This document shows, in pieces, positions 4,130 to 30,080 of a stretch of 33,179 nucleotides of DNA. The notes under the pieces were generated by a model that was not told where the DNA came from, ran no database searches, and saw nothing but the letters and a program-made list of their open reading frames with translations. The stretch covers positions 1 to 33,179 of the forward strand of contig JBHLMG010000025.1 of NCBI GenBank assembly GCA_048938385.1. The letters run 5' to 3'. Every line of letters begins with the position of its first letter. Position 1 is the stretch's first letter. Origin of the DNA: Promethearchaeota archaeon. GTDB taxonomy: Archaea; Asgardarchaeota; Hermodarchaeia; Hermodarchaeales; Hermodarchaeaceae. Both the position numbers and the translations under genes were made by a program.

Positions 4130-4756
4130 TTGTCGACTGGCGAGTTTAATAGGTTAATTGAAGATTGGCGGAAGGGTAAGAAACGAGGGCTTTGGAGGGA
4201 TGTTTTTTCAGAAAATCGTAAAGGCTATCAGCGCTTCGTTGCTACTGTGGCGGGTCAATACCTTCCTCGTATCCGCGATTTTGTTACCTATGATCATTCA
4301 ACTCAAAAAATGGCATTGAAGGCATGGAAAGTTCTGGTTGCTGAACTGGAAGATGATTTACGGATGCTAGATGCCTTTGATCCAAAAGGTAGTACGGCAT
4401 TTTTTGCCGCGGTGTTACTGGCAGAGGGCATCCTTCGCAATAAGATGGCGGTGAAAGCCTTTGAAGGCGGGGAAGCTGCTCCCACGGATTCGTTTGGAAA
4501 TCCTGAATTCATTAGTGGTATGGCTGCATGTCTGGACACAGTCATAGATCAGACCTATCAGGCTCTTCGCGGATTGACGGGAATCGATTTGCACCTATCA
4601 TTAGTGAGAAGAGCATCCCAGCGGCTTCATACCGCATTAATTCAGGGAGCGGTGAAAAGTCTCAATGATATGAAGACGCTGTTGCTTCCTCAGTTAACGG
4701 TGGTTGAAATGGAACTCGAAAAGTTCTACATTGCTTCCCAAGATTCACTGAAATGA
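4130..4756 (+). CDS. Hypothetical alpha-helical protein
   Basis: 208-aa ORF with TTG start, protein-like composition, fills the gap; no recognisable motif. Confidence 0.7.
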   Translation: MSTGEFNRLIEDWRKGKKRGLWRDVFSENRKGYQRFVATVAGQYLPRIRDFVTYDHSTQKMALKAWKVLVAELEDDLRMLDAFDPKGSTAFFAAVLLAEGILRNKMAVKAFEGGEAAPTDSFGNPEFISGMAACLDTVIDQTYQALRGLTGIDLHLSLVRRASQRLHTALIQGAVKSLNDMKTLLLPQLTVVEMELEKFYIASQDSLK

Positions 4757-4995
4757 CCAGTTGTTCTAACTAGGTTACACCAAGACTCTTGGGTCATCGA
4801 AAGGGTTGGCAGGAAATTCCTACCTCCTTTCACGAATTCAACGGTATTTTACCCCTCAAGTATCTCGGAACAAAATGGGTTCTCCAATTAGTTGTGTAAA
4901 AACCTTTTTCTGCGCTCTTTCTAATCGTTGGTTGAAGTTAAGCGACAGATTGGCTTTCGGTTAACCCTAGCTGCTCTCTTGGAAGGTGTGTCATT

Positions 4996-6006
4996 ATTCC
5001 ACGGGGACTTGTACTTAGTCATTGGGACACTAAAGAAGGACTCGTGGTGCTAGCAAAACACCCTGCATCCTTAGAGGTCAATCTCAACGACCTTTCAATG
5101 ATGTACTATACCTGTGCTCACGATGAACCCGGATCTGTTTTTCAGGTGTTCCCAACAAAAGATGTGGCAGAACGGGCTGCAGTGACCTGTTTGCGTGCCG
5201 AGCGTGAGGGATTGGATAACGATTTCTGTGTAACGGCATTGTTGACTAAGGAAGAAGAAGGATCCGTATACGAAGCAATTCTCATCGAAACGCTGCAACG
5301 CATCCTCAAATCTGACATTGCGCCCAGCCGACGCTTACGCCGGTACAAGGCGATTCTTGCTGATAGTTATCGAAAAATCGAACGCCGCGGCGGATCTCGG
5401 GACCAGTCGCTTTGCCCGTACATGTATGAACGCCCAATGACCAACGATGACCTTACTTCTTTTTGTCGGGTCGTCAAGAAGCAATGCTACCTCACATGTT
5501 ATGATATGCCAGGGTATCCTCAATGTCCTAGATATGTCCGGCGCCAACGACAAATTCAAATTGAAAATGCCCGACGCTTAGTCCGTGCTGGGATCCAACG
5601 GATTCTTGAAGAGCACGATCAACAAAGGCAAAAAGATGCAAGTACTAAACCTGGAGCATGGGCGGAACCGGTTCATACTATTTTGGATCGCTTATTCGCT
5701 GTGCTCGATCTTTCCCCTGAGACCGAAACCTATGCTCACAAAATAATAGATCAAGTCGGAAAGGAAGGTCTTTTTCAGGGACATCCCCGTCCCATTATAG
5801 CTGCCTCTATCGCCTATTATAGTGCCAAACACACTGGTGACTCACTACCCGAAAACGATATAATCGAACTGGTCGGTTGTTCACGCACATCTCTTCGGCG
5901 TAACTACCGCGAACTTCGTATGCTTCTCAACTCAGAGGCAACCACACAGCCCAAACAACGACGGCGTCCAAAACAAAAACATACCCCGGTCACTCGCGCC
6001 GAATAA
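4996..6006 (+). CDS. Longin/uDENN-like domain + Cys cluster + single TFIIB/TFB cyclin-like repeat fusion
   Basis: Frame is open upstream of GTG 5044 and reads (I)PRGLVLSHWDTKEGLVVLAKHP, matching the N-terminus of the 7085 protein; C-x16-C-x6-C-x3-C-x8-C; C-terminal ILDRLFAVLDLS..GLFQGHPRPIIAASIAYYSA..DIIELVGCSRTSLRRNYREL resembles the TFB C-terminal repeat. Confidence 0.8.
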   Translation: MPRGLVLSHWDTKEGLVVLAKHPASLEVNLNDLSMMYYTCAHDEPGSVFQVFPTKDVAERAAVTCLRAEREGLDNDFCVTALLTKEEEGSVYEAILIETLQRILKSDIAPSRRLRRYKAILADSYRKIERRGGSRDQSLCPYMYERPMTNDDLTSFCRVVKKQCYLTCYDMPGYPQCPRYVRRQRQIQIENARRLVRAGIQRILEEHDQQRQKDASTKPGAWAEPVHTILDRLFAVLDLSPETETYAHKIIDQVGKEGLFQGHPRPIIAASIAYYSAKHTGDSLPENDIIELVGCSRTSLRRNYRELRMLLNSEATTQPKQRRRPKQKHTPVTRAE

Positions 6007-6027
6007 AATGAAGGAGAAAACCCCTGC

Positions 6028-6897
6028 ATGATTCACAATGTTTTCATCATGACCCGAGATGGGCGCATTGCCTATCACCGTCAATATTGGCCAGTCGACA
6101 TCACTCCAGAAGACCGCCAAGAATTCATCGCTACTTACAAACAATTCGAAAGTGAACTAGGTCCAACTGTCGATCTCCCCATCCATGTGAAAAACATTAA
6201 ATTTCTCTACACCGATGCCGGTACTAACCTCCTCTTAGTCTTTGGTGTCGACATCTCTGATGAGGATGTAAAAATCCAAGAACACCTGAAAAAAGCCCGA
6301 GAACTCCTCGTCGAGAAATTCGGTCACGAAATTGATGCCTACATCCAAACCCCCGTTCCTGCTGGTAAAGCTTTCCTAGGTTTTGGCAAAGAGCTAGACG
6401 CTGTCATCGTGACCATGCTCAAGGTTTGCCTTCTTGGTCAAGGCGGTGTAGGCAAATCCACCATGCTCAAACTCCTTACCGCTGACAGCATCCCTGGCGA
6501 ATACTTCCCTACCATCGCCGTTGACATCGAAACTCTCAAAGGTGTGCGTTTTGGTCCCTATGAACTCGCTGTCTGGGATTTCGCTGGTCAAGACCGCTTC
6601 CGTTCCCTCTGGAATTACTACCTTCGTAACGCTGACGCCGTTCTACTCGTCACTGATTCCACTCTCAAAAATGTCCTTGAAACCCGCGATATCCTTGAAG
6701 TCGTCCGCAAAAATGCCCCCTCCGCCATTGTCTGGAGCATCGCCAACAAGCAAGATCTTCCCGGCGCGCTCGCCCCCAAACTCGTCCAGCGCATTCTAGG
6801 CGTCCAATCGTATGGTCTCGTAGCAATTGATCCCCGCTATCGAGAAACCCTCTACAAAATCATCATGGGTGCTGTCGCCGAAGCAACCACCGATTAA
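6028..6897 (+). CDS. Longin domain-Arf-like small GTPase fusion
   Basis: N-terminal MIHNVFIMTRDGRIAYHRQY (AP-sigma/longin-type start); G1 GQGGVGKS, G2 PTI, G3 WDFAGQ followed by RFRSLWNYY, G4 ANKQDLPGA (Arf-like context). Confidence 0.92.
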   Translation: MIHNVFIMTRDGRIAYHRQYWPVDITPEDRQEFIATYKQFESELGPTVDLPIHVKNIKFLYTDAGTNLLLVFGVDISDEDVKIQEHLKKARELLVEKFGHEIDAYIQTPVPAGKAFLGFGKELDAVIVTMLKVCLLGQGGVGKSTMLKLLTADSIPGEYFPTIAVDIETLKGVRFGPYELAVWDFAGQDRFRSLWNYYLRNADAVLLVTDSTLKNVLETRDILEVVRKNAPSAIVWSIANKQDLPGALAPKLVQRILGVQSYGLVAIDPRYRETLYKIIMGAVAEATTD

Positions 6898-7084
6898 TAG
6901 TTCCTTTAATTTCGACAAAGGGTTAGTTGCGAAAAATTACAGAAAGTAACAACACGAATCTTCTTTACAGCTAATCCGACAAACAAGTTAAATACGGGAA
7001 ATCTGATAGTCAAGACGAAGTGCTAGTAGGTCACTTTAAAGAAGAAAGGTTCAGATATTATTTAAGCAAACGGGAGATTGAACA

Positions 7085-8689
7085 ATGCCTAGCGGTTTAA
7101 GCGTTTGCAGGTGGGACGACAAAGTTGGGCTCCGCATCGTCGGCGTGTACCCTCGCAACCTCAATGTGTCCGAAGATGACATGCTCCGGGTCTTTACAGC
7201 CCACGCTATGGGTAAACCTGAAGCTGGCTTCCTCACCATGACCCTCGAAGGAACCAACCTAGCCGTAGCCAGTTTCTATACTGGAATTTTACGAGGGCGT
7301 GATCAGTTTTGCATAATGTTGTTTATGGAACTGGACGAGGAACCGCGTAACTACGAAGAGGGTTTGACGCTGGCGTCGAGCGAGATTGTGGAGAACATTG
7401 GTGAGCCGGAATTTATTGAGTATTTAGGTGAAGTTTTTGAAAAGCTGAAGCGAATGGTGGAACTATCCGTGGAGCAGCGGCTTGCCAAGGTCTTCGTTGA
7501 TCAGGAGACGCGGTTGTTAATGCACAAACTAGCGCGCGGTGGGATTCCTGCAGAAGAATTACGAGAATGGTTAGAACTGCAAACCGGAAAGCACTATCCC
7601 GATCTGGGCTTGGTGACTTTGCCCTTGTTACGCAGTGGATTGGTAGAAGAAGATTGGATTAACGCGGTTTCAGATAACTGCGTGTTTTTGGTAAACGATT
7701 TGCTGGGTGCTCGGTTCCCACCTGAACAAGTGTTGAAGCTTGCCAAGGGTGGTGGCTTGAATAAGGAGCAGTTCAACGAGTTGGAGAACCGTGTAAAGAG
7801 TTACTTCGAAGCCTACGAATGGACCGAAGACGACACAATGATGATTGGTCAACTGCTTTTAGACCCAGATGTCTACGATGTGACCAAGACTCTACGAAGG
7901 AAGATAGCCCACAAATCTGAGCTAGCGGGCGTCGTAGAAAAAGAAGCGTCACTCGATAATGTCCTGCGTCGTCTTGAACAGTCACAGGTGGTAACGACAT
8001 TTGGTGAGAACTCAGTGGAGGTCGGTGCTAACGATGATCCTCTCATCGTGTTGATATCGGATGTGCACTTTGAATCATTCTTTCCCGAGTTTTTGGTCTT
8101 ACGGCTTCAAGAGCGGTTAACGGCTAAGGACATTCACCCTGATGTTGCTAAACGTCATCTCGAACTACTCAGTGAGACCTACATGCGTATGCGCGAGAAA
8201 ATGAAAGAACGCAAGAAGCGGAAGGAAGAAGAAGCGCTTCCAGTTGTTGAGCCAGAAATGGTTGTCGAACCTGAAGAATTCGTAGAACCCAGTGAAACGC
8301 CACCTCTTGATGAAGAAGAAGCAAAACGGATCCAAAAGGAAGAGGAGAAGGCACGGAAGGCGGAAGAGAAGCGGCTGAAGGAAGAGGAGAAGAAGCGCAA
8401 GAAAGAGGAAGAAGCGAAGCTCAAAGAAGAAGAAGCAGCACGGAAGGCGGAAGAGAAGCGGCTGAAGGAAGAGGAGAAGGCGCGGAAGGCAGAAGAGCGA
8501 AAGAAACAGAAGGAAGAGGAAGAGAAACGCAAAGCCGAAAAGGAGCGCCTAAAGGAAGAGGAGGAAGCGCGGAAGGCGGAAGAGAAGCGGCTGAAGGAAG
8601 AGGAGAAGGCGCGGAAGGCAGAAGAGAAGGAGCGAAAAAAAGAGAAGGCCGCTGAGAAAAAGAAGAAAGAAGAAGCCCCCGCTGAATAA
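7085..8689 (+). CDS. Longin/uDENN-like protein with putative winged-helix domains and a C-terminal E/K/R-rich helical tail
   Basis: N-terminal RWDDKVGLRIVGVYP (uDENN-like F/W-D-x3-G-x5-6-P motif); wHTH-like LPLLRSGLVEE and LDNVLRRLEQSQVV; about 125-aa charged tail. Confidence 0.8.
   Translation: MPSGLSVCRWDDKVGLRIVGVYPRNLNVSEDDMLRVFTAHAMGKPEAGFLTMTLEGTNLAVASFYTGILRGRDQFCIMLFMELDEEPRNYEEGLTLASSEIVENIGEPEFIEYLGEVFEKLKRMVELSVEQRLAKVFVDQETRLLMHKLARGGIPAEELREWLELQTGKHYPDLGLVTLPLLRSGLVEEDWINAVSDNCVFLVNDLLGARFPPEQVLKLAKGGGLNKEQFNELENRVKSYFEAYEWTEDDTMMIGQLLLDPDVYDVTKTLRRKIAHKSELAGVVEKEASLDNVLRRLEQSQVVTTFGENSVEVGANDDPLIVLISDVHFESFFPEFLVLRLQERLTAKDIHPDVAKRHLELLSETYMRMREKMKERKKRKEEEALPVVEPEMVVEPEEFVEPSETPPLDEEEAKRIQKEEEKARKAEEKRLKEEEKKRKKEEEAKLKEEEAARKAEEKRLKEEEKARKAEERKKQKEEEEKRKAEKERLKEEEEARKAEEKRLKEEEKARKAEEKERKKEKAAEKKKKEEAPAE
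8351..8626 (+). repeat. Intragenic 42-bp direct repeats (ARKAEEKRLKEEEK) x3 in a purine-rich tract
   Basis: GCRCGGAAGGCGGAAGAGAAGCGGCTGAAGGAAGAGGAGAAG at 8351, 8438 and 8567; copies 2 and 3 stay identical for a further 18 nt. Confidence 0.9.
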
Positions 8690-27406: not shown

Positions 27407-27952
27407 GTGGAAGACGAAGGCATAATGCTCAAACTCGTCGTCGCTGGTGAAGGCGGCGTGGGCAAAACCACTATGATACGAAGGTATGTCGAAGGCGTAT
27501 ATCATTCGAGTATGATGACAGTGGGCGCCTCATTTGCTGCTAAACCTCTTGTTGTCAAGGATAGTGGAAATTCCACCAAAGTTAAACTTCAATTGTGGGA
27601 TTTCGCGGGAGAGAAGCGGTTTCGGTTTCTTCTTCCAAAGTTTTGCTTGGGTGCTCGCGGTGCGATTCTGGCTTTTGATTTGAATCGGTTTAGTACATTC
27701 TTAAAATTAAACGAGTGGCTAGAGCTCATTCAGAGAAATACAGAGGATATTCCAATTATTTTGGTAGGAATGAAGGCAGATCTTCATCGGGCCATCAATC
27801 GAAAGGAAGTCATTGATTACGCAAAAGGCAGGGGATTAAAAGCGTATTTTGAGACGAGTTCAAAGGATGATGTGAATGTGACCCCCGCCTTTGAGTATAT
27901 AACGAAACAGATGTTGGACTATGTTCGAACGAAGTTTAAGAAAGCCTATTAA
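27407..27952 (+). CDS. Rab-like small GTPase (no C-terminal prenylation motif)
   Basis: G1 GEGGVGKT, G2 TVG, KLQLWDFAGEKRFR, G4 GMKAD, G5 ETSSK. Confidence 0.93.
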   Translation: MEDEGIMLKLVVAGEGGVGKTTMIRRYVEGVYHSSMMTVGASFAAKPLVVKDSGNSTKVKLQLWDFAGEKRFRFLLPKFCLGARGAILAFDLNRFSTFLKLNEWLELIQRNTEDIPIILVGMKADLHRAINRKEVIDYAKGRGLKAYFETSSKDDVNVTPAFEYITKQMLDYVRTKFKKAY

Positions 27953-29313: not shown

Positions 29314-29414
29314 TTTTTGCTAGGATAACTCTTTATGTGAAGAAATGTAAGGTCAGGTAAGGTTTTAGCAGAGTTTCCGTTCTATTAACCAGCTTGGATA
29401 TCAAGGTGCCCTTA

Positions 29415-30080
29415 ATGGTAGTACACGCAGTGTGGATTATTGATACAAGCGGGATACCCCTCTACCATAAAGCCTATTCGCCTCTCGAGTTTGATGCCAC
29501 TCTGTTCAGCAGTTTCTTCTCTTCCCTCGTGCACTTCCAAAGCGAAATGATGGGTCGACAACTTCAAGACATCAACTTCGAAGATCTCTCCTTTAGTTAT
29601 ATTGTTGACAGCGGTCTCGTTTTCCTCGCCTGCGTGAAAAAAGATGCTTCCACAGGGCAATTACTTCAATCCTTACGCGATGTCTTTTTCCGCTTTTTCA
29701 AAGATGATCTTATTCTCCTTAGCTCAATGCTTCGCACTGGATCCAAAGCTCGTGAGTTGCTTCAGCAATTCGAAGGCGAAGTTGATGCGCTAGTTGGCTT
29801 TGCTCCACAAAAAGAGCCTCTTCCCGTCCGGGTTACCGCCATTCCTCGATTACTCCACAAAGAATCCTCCATTCGTCAAGATCTCTTGCGGCGCTTTGGT
29901 ATGAAGGCAATCCTTGTAATTATTCTCTCTGATGGAAAACATAAAGTGGGAGATATCGCCGACGCTTTAGATATACAACCGAACGAAGTTGACGAGATTA
30001 TACACCACGCAGAAAGAAGGGGATACCTGAAAATCGTCTCAGCATATCAGATTGATGATCAAACCCTTGAATCTCATTAA
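29415..30080 (+). CDS. Longin domain + C-terminal winged-helix protein (NPRL2-like architecture)
   Basis: VHAVWIIDTSGIPLYHKAY..LFSSFFSSLVHF (longin); IPRL..SDGKHKVGDIADALDIQPNEVDEIIHHAERRGYLKIV (wHTH); ATG 29415 with SD-like AAGGTG at 29403-29408. Confidence 0.82.
   Translation: MVVHAVWIIDTSGIPLYHKAYSPLEFDATLFSSFFSSLVHFQSEMMGRQLQDINFEDLSFSYIVDSGLVFLACVKKDASTGQLLQSLRDVFFRFFKDDLILLSSMLRTGSKARELLQQFEGEVDALVGFAPQKEPLPVRVTAIPRLLHKESSIRQDLLRRFGMKAILVIILSDGKHKVGDIADALDIQPNEVDEIIHHAERRGYLKIVSAYQIDDQTLESH

Follow-up and report, generated by a model that had tools for sequence, protein, structure and literature searches.

A recurrent Asgard gene pair of a longin-fused small GTPase and an NPRL2/3-like longin protein, accompanied in one Thorarchaeial family by a longin-TFB-repeat chimera: a candidate switch with transcriptional output

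Do three adjacent archaeal genes that each begin with a longin-type domain, and that continue into a TFB repeat, a small GTPase and winged helices, respectively, form one signalling module, and could such a module report to transcription? The question is raised by positions 4996-8689 of contig JBHLMG010000025.1 (GenBank assembly GCA_048938385.1) from a Promethearchaeota archaeon, of which positions 1 to 33,179, a stretch of 33,179 nucleotides (nt) hereafter called the window, were analysed. The first, second and third gene of this + strand trio are referred to as g1, g2 and g3. An earlier note on the same DNA had proposed a primitive Rag/GATOR- or DENN-like signalling system with a transcriptional output. 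The answer favoured here, tentatively and with a little less than even confidence, is that g2 and g3 represent, at this locus, an old Asgard pair in which an NPRL2/3-like g3 regulates g2 or reads its state, that g1 is an added subunit, and that the output goes to transcription.

The functional pairing of g2 and g3, as GTPase and regulator, is well supported, because adjacency of g3-family and g2-type genes recurs in seven Asgard families despite rearranged gene order, strand and flanking genes. The families are labelled f1, f2 and so on, f1 being the window's own Thorarchaeial family. A six-frame search of 301 Asgard genomes disclosed full-length g3 homologues in 217 of them at 28-35% identity and E-values of 1e-40 to 1e-70; this search was needed to reach the wider family, since a word-index search returned g3 relatives in close Thor-like metagenome-assembled genomes (MAGs) only. 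A g3-family profile search of five genomes gave 5 to 13 matches per genome. The g3 protein has no Pfam match up to an E-value of 1, the family as a whole lacks a Pfam model, and a g3 query of the protein atlas retrieved only unnamed Asgard clusters called hypothetical. In a tree of 25 family members, the deep branches lack resolution, and the GTPase-linked members may or may not form a single clade.

Outside Thorarchaeia, 20 loci sampled from 11 other families were compared, and in 10 of them the g3 homologue has a g2-type GTPase gene no more than 3 kb away. These 10 loci belong to families f6, f7, f12, f18 and f26 and vary in order and orientation: (i) in f18 and f7, the GTPase gene follows directly downstream of the g3 homologue after a gap of 13-40 nt; (ii) in f12, the two genes are divergent; and (iii) in f6, one opposite-strand gene separates them. 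In addition, g3-family and g2-type GTPase genes of the f9 genome G206 stand tail to tail, 300 nt apart. The adjacent GTPase is the best match to g2 in three of the five genomes checked, each of which encodes 12-41 GTPase candidates. Prediction of a complex between g3 (residues 1-385) and g2 from family alignments scored 0.00, a value that counts neither for nor against binding.

Within the window, three + strand open reading frames (ORFs) follow one another, g1 at 4996-6006, g2 at 6028-6897 and g3 at 7085-8689, and the co-oriented arrangement described in the earlier note, with a longin at each N-terminus, is confirmed by the ORFs, by AF2 models of g1 and g3 compared with known folds through VIA Z scores, and by a sequence profile, on which the g2 longin was judged. 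The three different outputs read at the outset, a TFB repeat, an Arf-like GTPase, and a winged helix-turn-helix (wHTH) plus charged rod, likewise agree with Pfam, VIA Z and profile matches and with the Lys/Glu-rich tail of g3. The stop codon of g1 (6004-6006) and the ATG of g2 (6028) leave a + strand spacer of 21 nt (6007-6027), precisely as first noted, which contains AAGGAG; at locus L001, from a sister genus within f1, the two genes overlap by 4 nt. Translationally, g1 and g2 are close-coupled. An AT-rich + strand spacer of 187 nt, read directly at 6898-7084, separates g2 from g3 and may, judging from its letters, hold a promoter of g3's own; in L003 and L005, this gap is wider and contains small opposite-strand ORFs.

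In NPRL2 and NPRL3, the chain opens with a longin and continues into at least two winged helix-turn-helix repeats (PMC3747258). The g3 protein displays the same order, a longin and then two winged helices, the first of which is recognised by sequence pattern only. Its AF2 model has an overall pLDDT of 64, with the longin (residues 1-126) confidently placed. The longin domain (aa 1-128; 7085-7468, + strand), defined by AF2 and VIA, carries W10-D11-x3-G15, invariant in 25 family members, and the modelled longins of g1 and g3 share the topology beta-beta-alpha-beta-beta-beta-alpha-alpha (DSSP). VIA Z scores of the g3 longin reach 13.2 for the Lokiarchaeial longin 8yqg, 12.1 for NPRL2, 12.0 for NPRL3, 11.8 for the FLCN complex, 11-12 for FNIP2, Lst4 and Npr2/3, and 9.5-10.9 for SNARE and adaptor longins. 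The first ArsR-like winged helix (aa 129-205; 7469-7699, + strand) is assigned tentatively, the family consensus resembling ArsR alpha1-alpha3 in a region of AF2 pLDDT below 50. The second, ArsR/SmtB-like winged helix (aa 245-340; 7817-8104, + strand) is identified by VIA (Z 8.6-9.4 to SqrR, CadC, CzrA and HlyU), by the family profile against the PDB (ArsR-like PH1932, E 3.4e-4) and by Pfam HTH_5/HTH_20 matches in 9-10 of 25 family members (best E 3.5e-8). The translation ends in a Lys/Glu-rich tail (aa 395-534; 8267-8689, + strand) encoded by degenerate DNA repeats with periods of 87 and 129 nt, and the length of this tail is variable, relatives measuring 415-553 aa in total. In overlapping Thorarchaeial samples, mean column identity is 83% for g3 versus 64-65% for g1.

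The likeness to GATOR and other longin GTPase-activating proteins (GAPs) proposed in the earlier note is thus upheld in that the g1 and g3 longins best match NPRL2/NPRL3, Npr2/3, FNIP2 and Lst4, and g3 has the NPRL2/3 architecture. The DENN-like alternative named beside it is not preferred, since g3's C-terminal half resembles wHTH folds of the ArsR type rather than a DENN core: DENND1A/B match only residues 1-133 of the model, in which residues 127-212 are poorly modelled.

The N-terminal region of g2 (aa 1-125; 6028-6402, + strand) is an AP-sigma/mu-type longin according to Pfam (Clat_adaptor_s, E 0.012) and to profile comparison with the PDB, where it matches AP-4 sigma at full length (E 6.5e-4), the AP-3 mu N-terminus (E 0.0036), other adaptor sigma chains and, weakly, MglB (E 0.1); the protein atlas gave no usable named match for a g2 longin query. 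By hhalign, it has no detectable similarity to the g1/g3 longins. The presence of longins in all three genes stands; that of g2 belongs to a different subfamily from those of g1 and g3; common paralogy of all three longins was considered and dropped, as hhalign saw no similarity between the g2 longin and the g3 family. The remainder (6403-6897, + strand) is an Arf/Rag-like small GTPase domain of the Ras superfamily: Pfam scores residues 126-289 at 73 bits for Roc, 70.4 for Arf (cut-off 22.3) and 62 for Ras, all above cut-off, and at 28.3 for Gtr1_RagA (cut-off 22), well under Arf and Roc, with a weak SRPRB match. The G1-G5 motifs are intact, and GxxxxGK(S/T), T162, DxxGQ and NKxD are invariant in 28 sequences. 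The Arf G-domain score is strong and the N-terminus is a 125-aa longin, with no short amphipathic helix; the protein lacks the Rag/Gtr architecture, ending about 25 aa past the G5 region without a C-terminal roadblock. Such longin-GTPases of 280-290 aa are widespread in Asgard MAGs, where they are labelled Arf-like. In f6, the g3-linked longin-GTPases (L029 12462-14111; L030 5154-6743; L031 11904-13586; L036 6785-8335) have a C-terminal acidic-rich tail of roughly 230-270 aa; the long extension sits instead on the g3-type protein in Thorarchaeia, where it is Lys/Glu-rich, and in some f9, f28 and f30 members.

The 5' end of g1 was analysed on 22 loci comprising the window, 18 genomes of f1 and three metagenome contigs. 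The frame is open from 4942 and its first canonical start (ATG/GTG/TTG) occurs only at 5044; similarity to g3 begins 16 codons before 5044, at ATT 4996, with both alignments running from residue 1. On sequence evidence, the start at 4996 is real, because the initiation codon is ATC or ATT, a Shine-Dalgarno-like (G/A)AAGGTG stands 7 nt before it, and the N-terminus I-P-R/Y/Q-G-L... is kept, each in all 22 loci. In the window, the Shine-Dalgarno-like element reads GGAAGGTG (4981-4988, + strand; direct reading), 7 nt before the g1 start. An in-frame TGA two codons upstream of the start is present in 16 of the 22 loci. Given this conserved AUU/AUC start, most database entries for g1 are N-terminally truncated and miss part of the longin domain.

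From this non-canonical ATT, g1 (4996-6006, + strand) encodes 336 aa in which a longin, a four-Cys module and a single cyclin repeat of the TFB type follow one another; the AF2 model (pLDDT 77) displays a longin (residues 1-131), a small beta module, a long helix and a five-helix cyclin repeat (residues 221-313). The longin (aa 1-135; 4996-5400, + strand), identified by BLASTP, AF2 and VIA, scores VIA Z 14.1 to 8yqg and 13.7 to NPRL2 (9o5d_D) and aligns with the g3 longin over 130 aa at 24% identity (BLASTP E 5e-7), in line with the paralogy of g1 and g3 proposed previously. Next, the four-Cys module (5410-5535, + strand) comprises C140, C157, C164 and C177, invariant in 23 sequences; AF2 builds two short strands at a pLDDT of about 65, no family match was found for the module, and the cysteines form a possible metal site.

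The cyclin repeat (aa 221-315; 5656-5940, + strand), located by Pfam, VIA and profile, ends in a near-invariant helix-turn-helix (HTH), the most invariant stretch of g1. It scores 16.5-19.2 bits against Pfam TFIIB, under the 23.6-bit cut-off, and VIA Z 14.7 and 14.6 against P. woesei TFB at 20-21% identity. Searched against 1.84 billion representatives, the g1 family profile matches about 160 proteins via the cyclin repeat alone (best E 6e-12), which, where checked, are bona fide TFBs and usually give their best stretch in the second TFB repeat. An hhalign comparison of the g1 family with the genome's own TFB is weak (E 0.0012) and falls on the first repeat; as to the counterpart of the g1 repeat, VIA ties both TFB repeats and the representative search favours the second. 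In the TFB encoded by the same genome, the counterpart of the terminal HTH is the ...VTVRNRYKEL helix, and the HTH resembles the helix with which TFB reads the B-recognition element (BRE). With a single repeat and no match to Zn_Ribbon_TF, g1 is not a full TFB/TFIIB.

The whole g1 architecture occurs only in f1, in 19 of 19 genomes including the window's own, and forms one 50%-identity cluster in the representative library. Outside f1, its two halves match g3-family proteins and ordinary TFBs separately, which makes g1 a chimera specific to this lineage, built from a duplicated longin of the g3 type and a repeat derived from TFB. The window's own genome, G000, contains at least seven full two-repeat TFB paralogues (contigs C11, C22, C23, C25, C36 and C47), two of them in tandem on C36, and two short ORFs (141 and 105 aa) that each encode just one TFIIB repeat. 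At L001, a second longin-GTPase paralogue (312 aa; 4923-5861) lies directly upstream of g1, GTPase genes flanking g1 on both sides.

These features would fit the following mechanism. The g3 longin would dock on g2, by analogy with GATOR1-RagA, FLCN/FNIP-RagC, C9orf72/SMCR8-Arf and MglB-MglA, and would then either set the nucleotide state of g2, as GAP or guanine nucleotide exchange factor (GEF), or read that state as an effector. In f1, the fusion of a duplicated g3-type longin with the four-Cys module and a TFB-like cyclin repeat would have produced g1, which would share a transcript with g2 and, starting at its conserved AUU/AUC codon, be translated weakly and made in low amounts. The g1 protein would most likely pair through its longin with g3 or with g2, in the way NPRL3 pairs with NPRL2, and DNA, TBP or promoter complexes would receive the GTPase state through g3's winged helices and g1's TFB repeat. 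We infer the longin-longin assembly, including g1-g3 heterodimerisation, and a nucleotide-dependent choice of partner, as well as the catalytic and the DNA- or TBP-binding steps; a transcriptional output is plausible. A stronger version, in which the paralogous longins of g1 and g3 form a GATOR1/CSW-like pair on g2 that couples its GTP/GDP state directly to promoter/TBP complexes, and which would make the module a possible forerunner of nutrient-sensing longin GAP complexes, appears doubtful.

Several observations weigh against the favoured reading. At the catalytic level, no Arg is invariant across the g3-family longins (25 members), compared with the Arg78 finger of NPRL2: Thorarchaeial g3 longins have R9, R17, R70 and R72, and in f6, f12 and f26 members the beta4-beta5 loop contains an Arg. 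The GAP-site longins FLCN, NPRL2, SMCR8 and C9orf72 have a GP motif before beta2 in common, and C9orf72 requires in addition an essential W33-D34, with G38 (PMC12290439). The g3 family preserves the C9orf72-type WD motif, W10 and D11 being invariant in 25 members and g1 reading W-D-T-K-E-G, and G15 is likewise invariant; the residue after it is L, A, V, T or I and never P. This leaves g3 short of established membership in the NPRL or GAP-longin families, since this Pro is never present and no longin Arg is invariant, and the resemblance is architectural and, at motif level, partial. Moreover, SNARE and adaptor longins score only 1-3 Z units lower, and the GAP-longin subtype consequently rests mainly on architecture and motif. 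In two complete genomes, G001 (f2) and G146 (f9), no adjacency of the pair was found. On the side of output, the winged helices of NPRL2/3 and ESCRT-II contact proteins instead of DNA, g3's putative recognition helices and the exposed residues of its wHTH helices vary across the family, and other g3 paralogues adjoin or are fused with giant lectin/Ig surface-like proteins, neighbours that point away from a purely transcriptional role.

The last three points would be accommodated by a GTPase/longin-regulator system with a non-transcriptional output, in membrane, cell-surface or growth control, where winged helices, cyclin repeat and charged tail would serve as protein scaffolds; this explanation is unlikely on balance, and yet it is the main rival. 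In f2, f9, f12 and f23, other g3 paralogues stand directly next to ConA-lectin/Ig giants of 1,480-2,600 aa, stop codon touching start codon, genome G209 carries five tandem copies in which the g3-like module lies within open frames of 2,655-2,678 aa, and the eukaryotic look-alikes GATOR1, FLCN and C9orf72-SMCR8 act on membranes (PMC12290439). The near-invariant TFB-type HTH kept in g1 speaks for a transcriptional output instead, as do the scores of g3 family members on ArsR/TrmB/MarR DNA-binding models, and Pfam discloses no membrane anchor or lipid-binding family in any of the three proteins. It is improbable, in turn, that g1 is a stand-alone TFB-derived decoy or specialised promoter factor, with a longin for dimerisation or sensing and an adjacency to g2 reflecting co-regulation only. 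The set of at least seven full TFB paralogues plus single-repeat ORFs in the genome implies that TFB-derived regulators are diversifying here; g1, having one cyclin repeat and no Zn ribbon, is unable to act as a general initiation factor; and its weak AUU/AUC start fits a low-copy regulator. Such independence from g2 is at odds with the tight, conserved coupling of the two genes (21 nt or a 4-nt overlap) and with the origin of the g1 longin in a family that recurrently partners g2's class of GTPase.

Finally, the three genes could be mere neighbours by descent, devoid of any functional link. The gene-order check yielded g1-g2-g3 in 13 of 13 f1 genomes with both genes on one contig, a contig end falling between them in five others, and the same order in three metagenome loci; the loss of gene order that the earlier note had named as refuting its proposal was thus not observed, an outcome in favour of that proposal. 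Nevertheless, this within-family synteny is weak evidence and carries little information, because the whole f1 neighbourhood is syntenic: the conserved order includes RNase HII, a VTT-domain protein, SSB and DNA ligase and extends over more than 7 kb outside the trio, a further point that tempers the favoured reading. Simple neighbourhood would leave unexplained the pairing of g3-family with g2-type genes in seven families despite rearranged order, strand and flanks, and the translational close-coupling of g1 and g2, and it is accordingly disfavoured as improbable. The reading of g2 and g3 as an old Asgard pair, with g1 as an added subunit and transcription as the output, is retained as the tentative first choice.

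Comparison with known systems highlights both likenesses and differences. GATOR1, with NPRL2/NPRL3 (yeast Npr2/Npr3), resembles the trio in the combination of longin and repeated winged helices seen in g3, for which it provides top structural matches (Z 11-12), in the paralogous longin pair NPRL2 and NPRL3, comparable to g1 and g3, and in the tie to Rag, g3 being genomically linked to an Arf/Rag-like GTPase. It differs in that g3 lacks a Pfam NPR2/NPR3 match (none at E up to 1, and neither family is among the 25 commonest over 25 members), an evident conserved Arg finger and the Pro of the GP motif; g2 has an N-terminal longin in place of the C-terminal roadblock of Rag, and the TFB repeat of g1 is present in no eukaryotic subunit. 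C9orf72-SMCR8 (CSW) and FLCN-FNIP share the longin fold (FNIP2 and Lst4, Z 11-12), C9orf72 shares the W-D-x3-G of g3 and g1 at beta1-beta2, with spacing equal to W33-D34...G38, and the CSW client is an Arf GTPase, g2 scoring best as Arf/Roc; in both, the difference lies after the longin, where g3 has winged helices and no DENN domain. Compared to archaeal TFB/TFIIB, g1 (residues 221-315) preserves a TFIIB-type cyclin repeat ending in a TFB-like HTH, displaying one repeat, no Zn ribbon and no B-reader, and a longin and four-Cys module instead. MglA-MglB and SRbeta-SRalpha (SRX) also comprise a small GTPase and a roadblock/longin platform encoded nearby, from different longin subfamilies, whereas the platform protein here carries DNA-binding-type domains.

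The description of the trio as an undescribed system went too far, since Asgard longin-GTPase fusions and NPRL2-like longin proteins, the latter in most Thor MAGs, have been published, including in Thor and Loki lineages (bioRxiv 10.1101/2020.10.19.343400; PMC10933270). The architecture of g2 is the one reported for Asgard longin-GTPases (Liu et al. 2020/2021; Tran et al. 2024), and g3 fits the published description of a longin plus an NPRL2-specific C-terminal domain in most Thor MAGs. Among the papers of the library searched, none dealing with the TFB-repeat fusion or with the g2-g3 gene pair was found. What is new comprises (i) the Pfam-less g3 family in 217 of 301 Asgard genomes, (ii) the recurrent g3-GTPase adjacency, and (iii) the restriction of g1 to f1 and its AUU/AUC start.

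Further observations concern the surroundings of these genes. In f7 (L034 11393-11713) and f18 (L032 8218-8550), a small Lys/Glu-rich, likely helical protein of 106-110 aa follows the pair of g3 homologue and GTPase, and in f7 (L034 9418-12345) a TBP gene occurs some 0.4 kb past the cluster of g3 homologue, GTPase and 106-aa gene. In f2 and f20, 2.7-2.8 kb separate a full TFB gene from a g3 paralogue (L019 8976-13764; L037 1765-6595). The proximity of TFB and TBP genes to g3 paralogues may be chance or may hint at a link to basal transcription. The giant-protein loci are L026 7686-17276, L027 4589-10170, L035 8547-17478, L018 2872-9124, L020 4291-10936 and G209 contig C9 430370-464784; of two giants scanned, one has ConA-lectin/Laminin_G_3 matches and the other is Ig-like. 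Upstream of g1, the window encodes a 208-aa ORF (4130-4756) without a Pfam family, and L005 has a 207-aa ORF at the matching place, known by position and length only; in L001, the GTPase paralogue occupies this place. A second combination of GTPase and longin-plus-wHTH protein occurs at 27407-27952 and 29394-30080 of the window, comprising a 181-aa Ras/Rab-like GTPase (Ras, E 5.6e-35) and a 228-aa protein with weak matches to a Fuz/Mon1-type longin (E 0.004) and to the wHTH family HTH_47 (E 0.002); an Asp/Asn/Lys-type class II tRNA synthetase gene separates the two. GNAT genes occurring close to the module both in f6 and in the window are not orthologous (E 0.044) and were dropped as a shared feature.

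Asgard genomes encode dozens of small GTPases together with longin and roadblock proteins, and matching a GTPase to its regulator has been described as hard, as operons of the cultured Lokiarchaeon MK-D1 rarely join both (PMC10933270). Because GTPase genes in MK-D1 are generally not in operons with longin or roadblock genes, a pairing that, by contrast, recurs in seven families is useful: g3 and the longin-fused Arf/Rag-like GTPase constitute a specific, recurrent pair testable in vitro, which bears on whether GAP chemistry of the GATOR1, FLCN or C9orf72 type predates eukaryotes. Through the Thor-specific fusion of longin and TFB repeat, a GTPase switch might act on transcription directly. Should this be confirmed, the route would be new for archaea, and a small-GTPase switch would be wired into basal transcription in archaeal relatives of eukaryotes.

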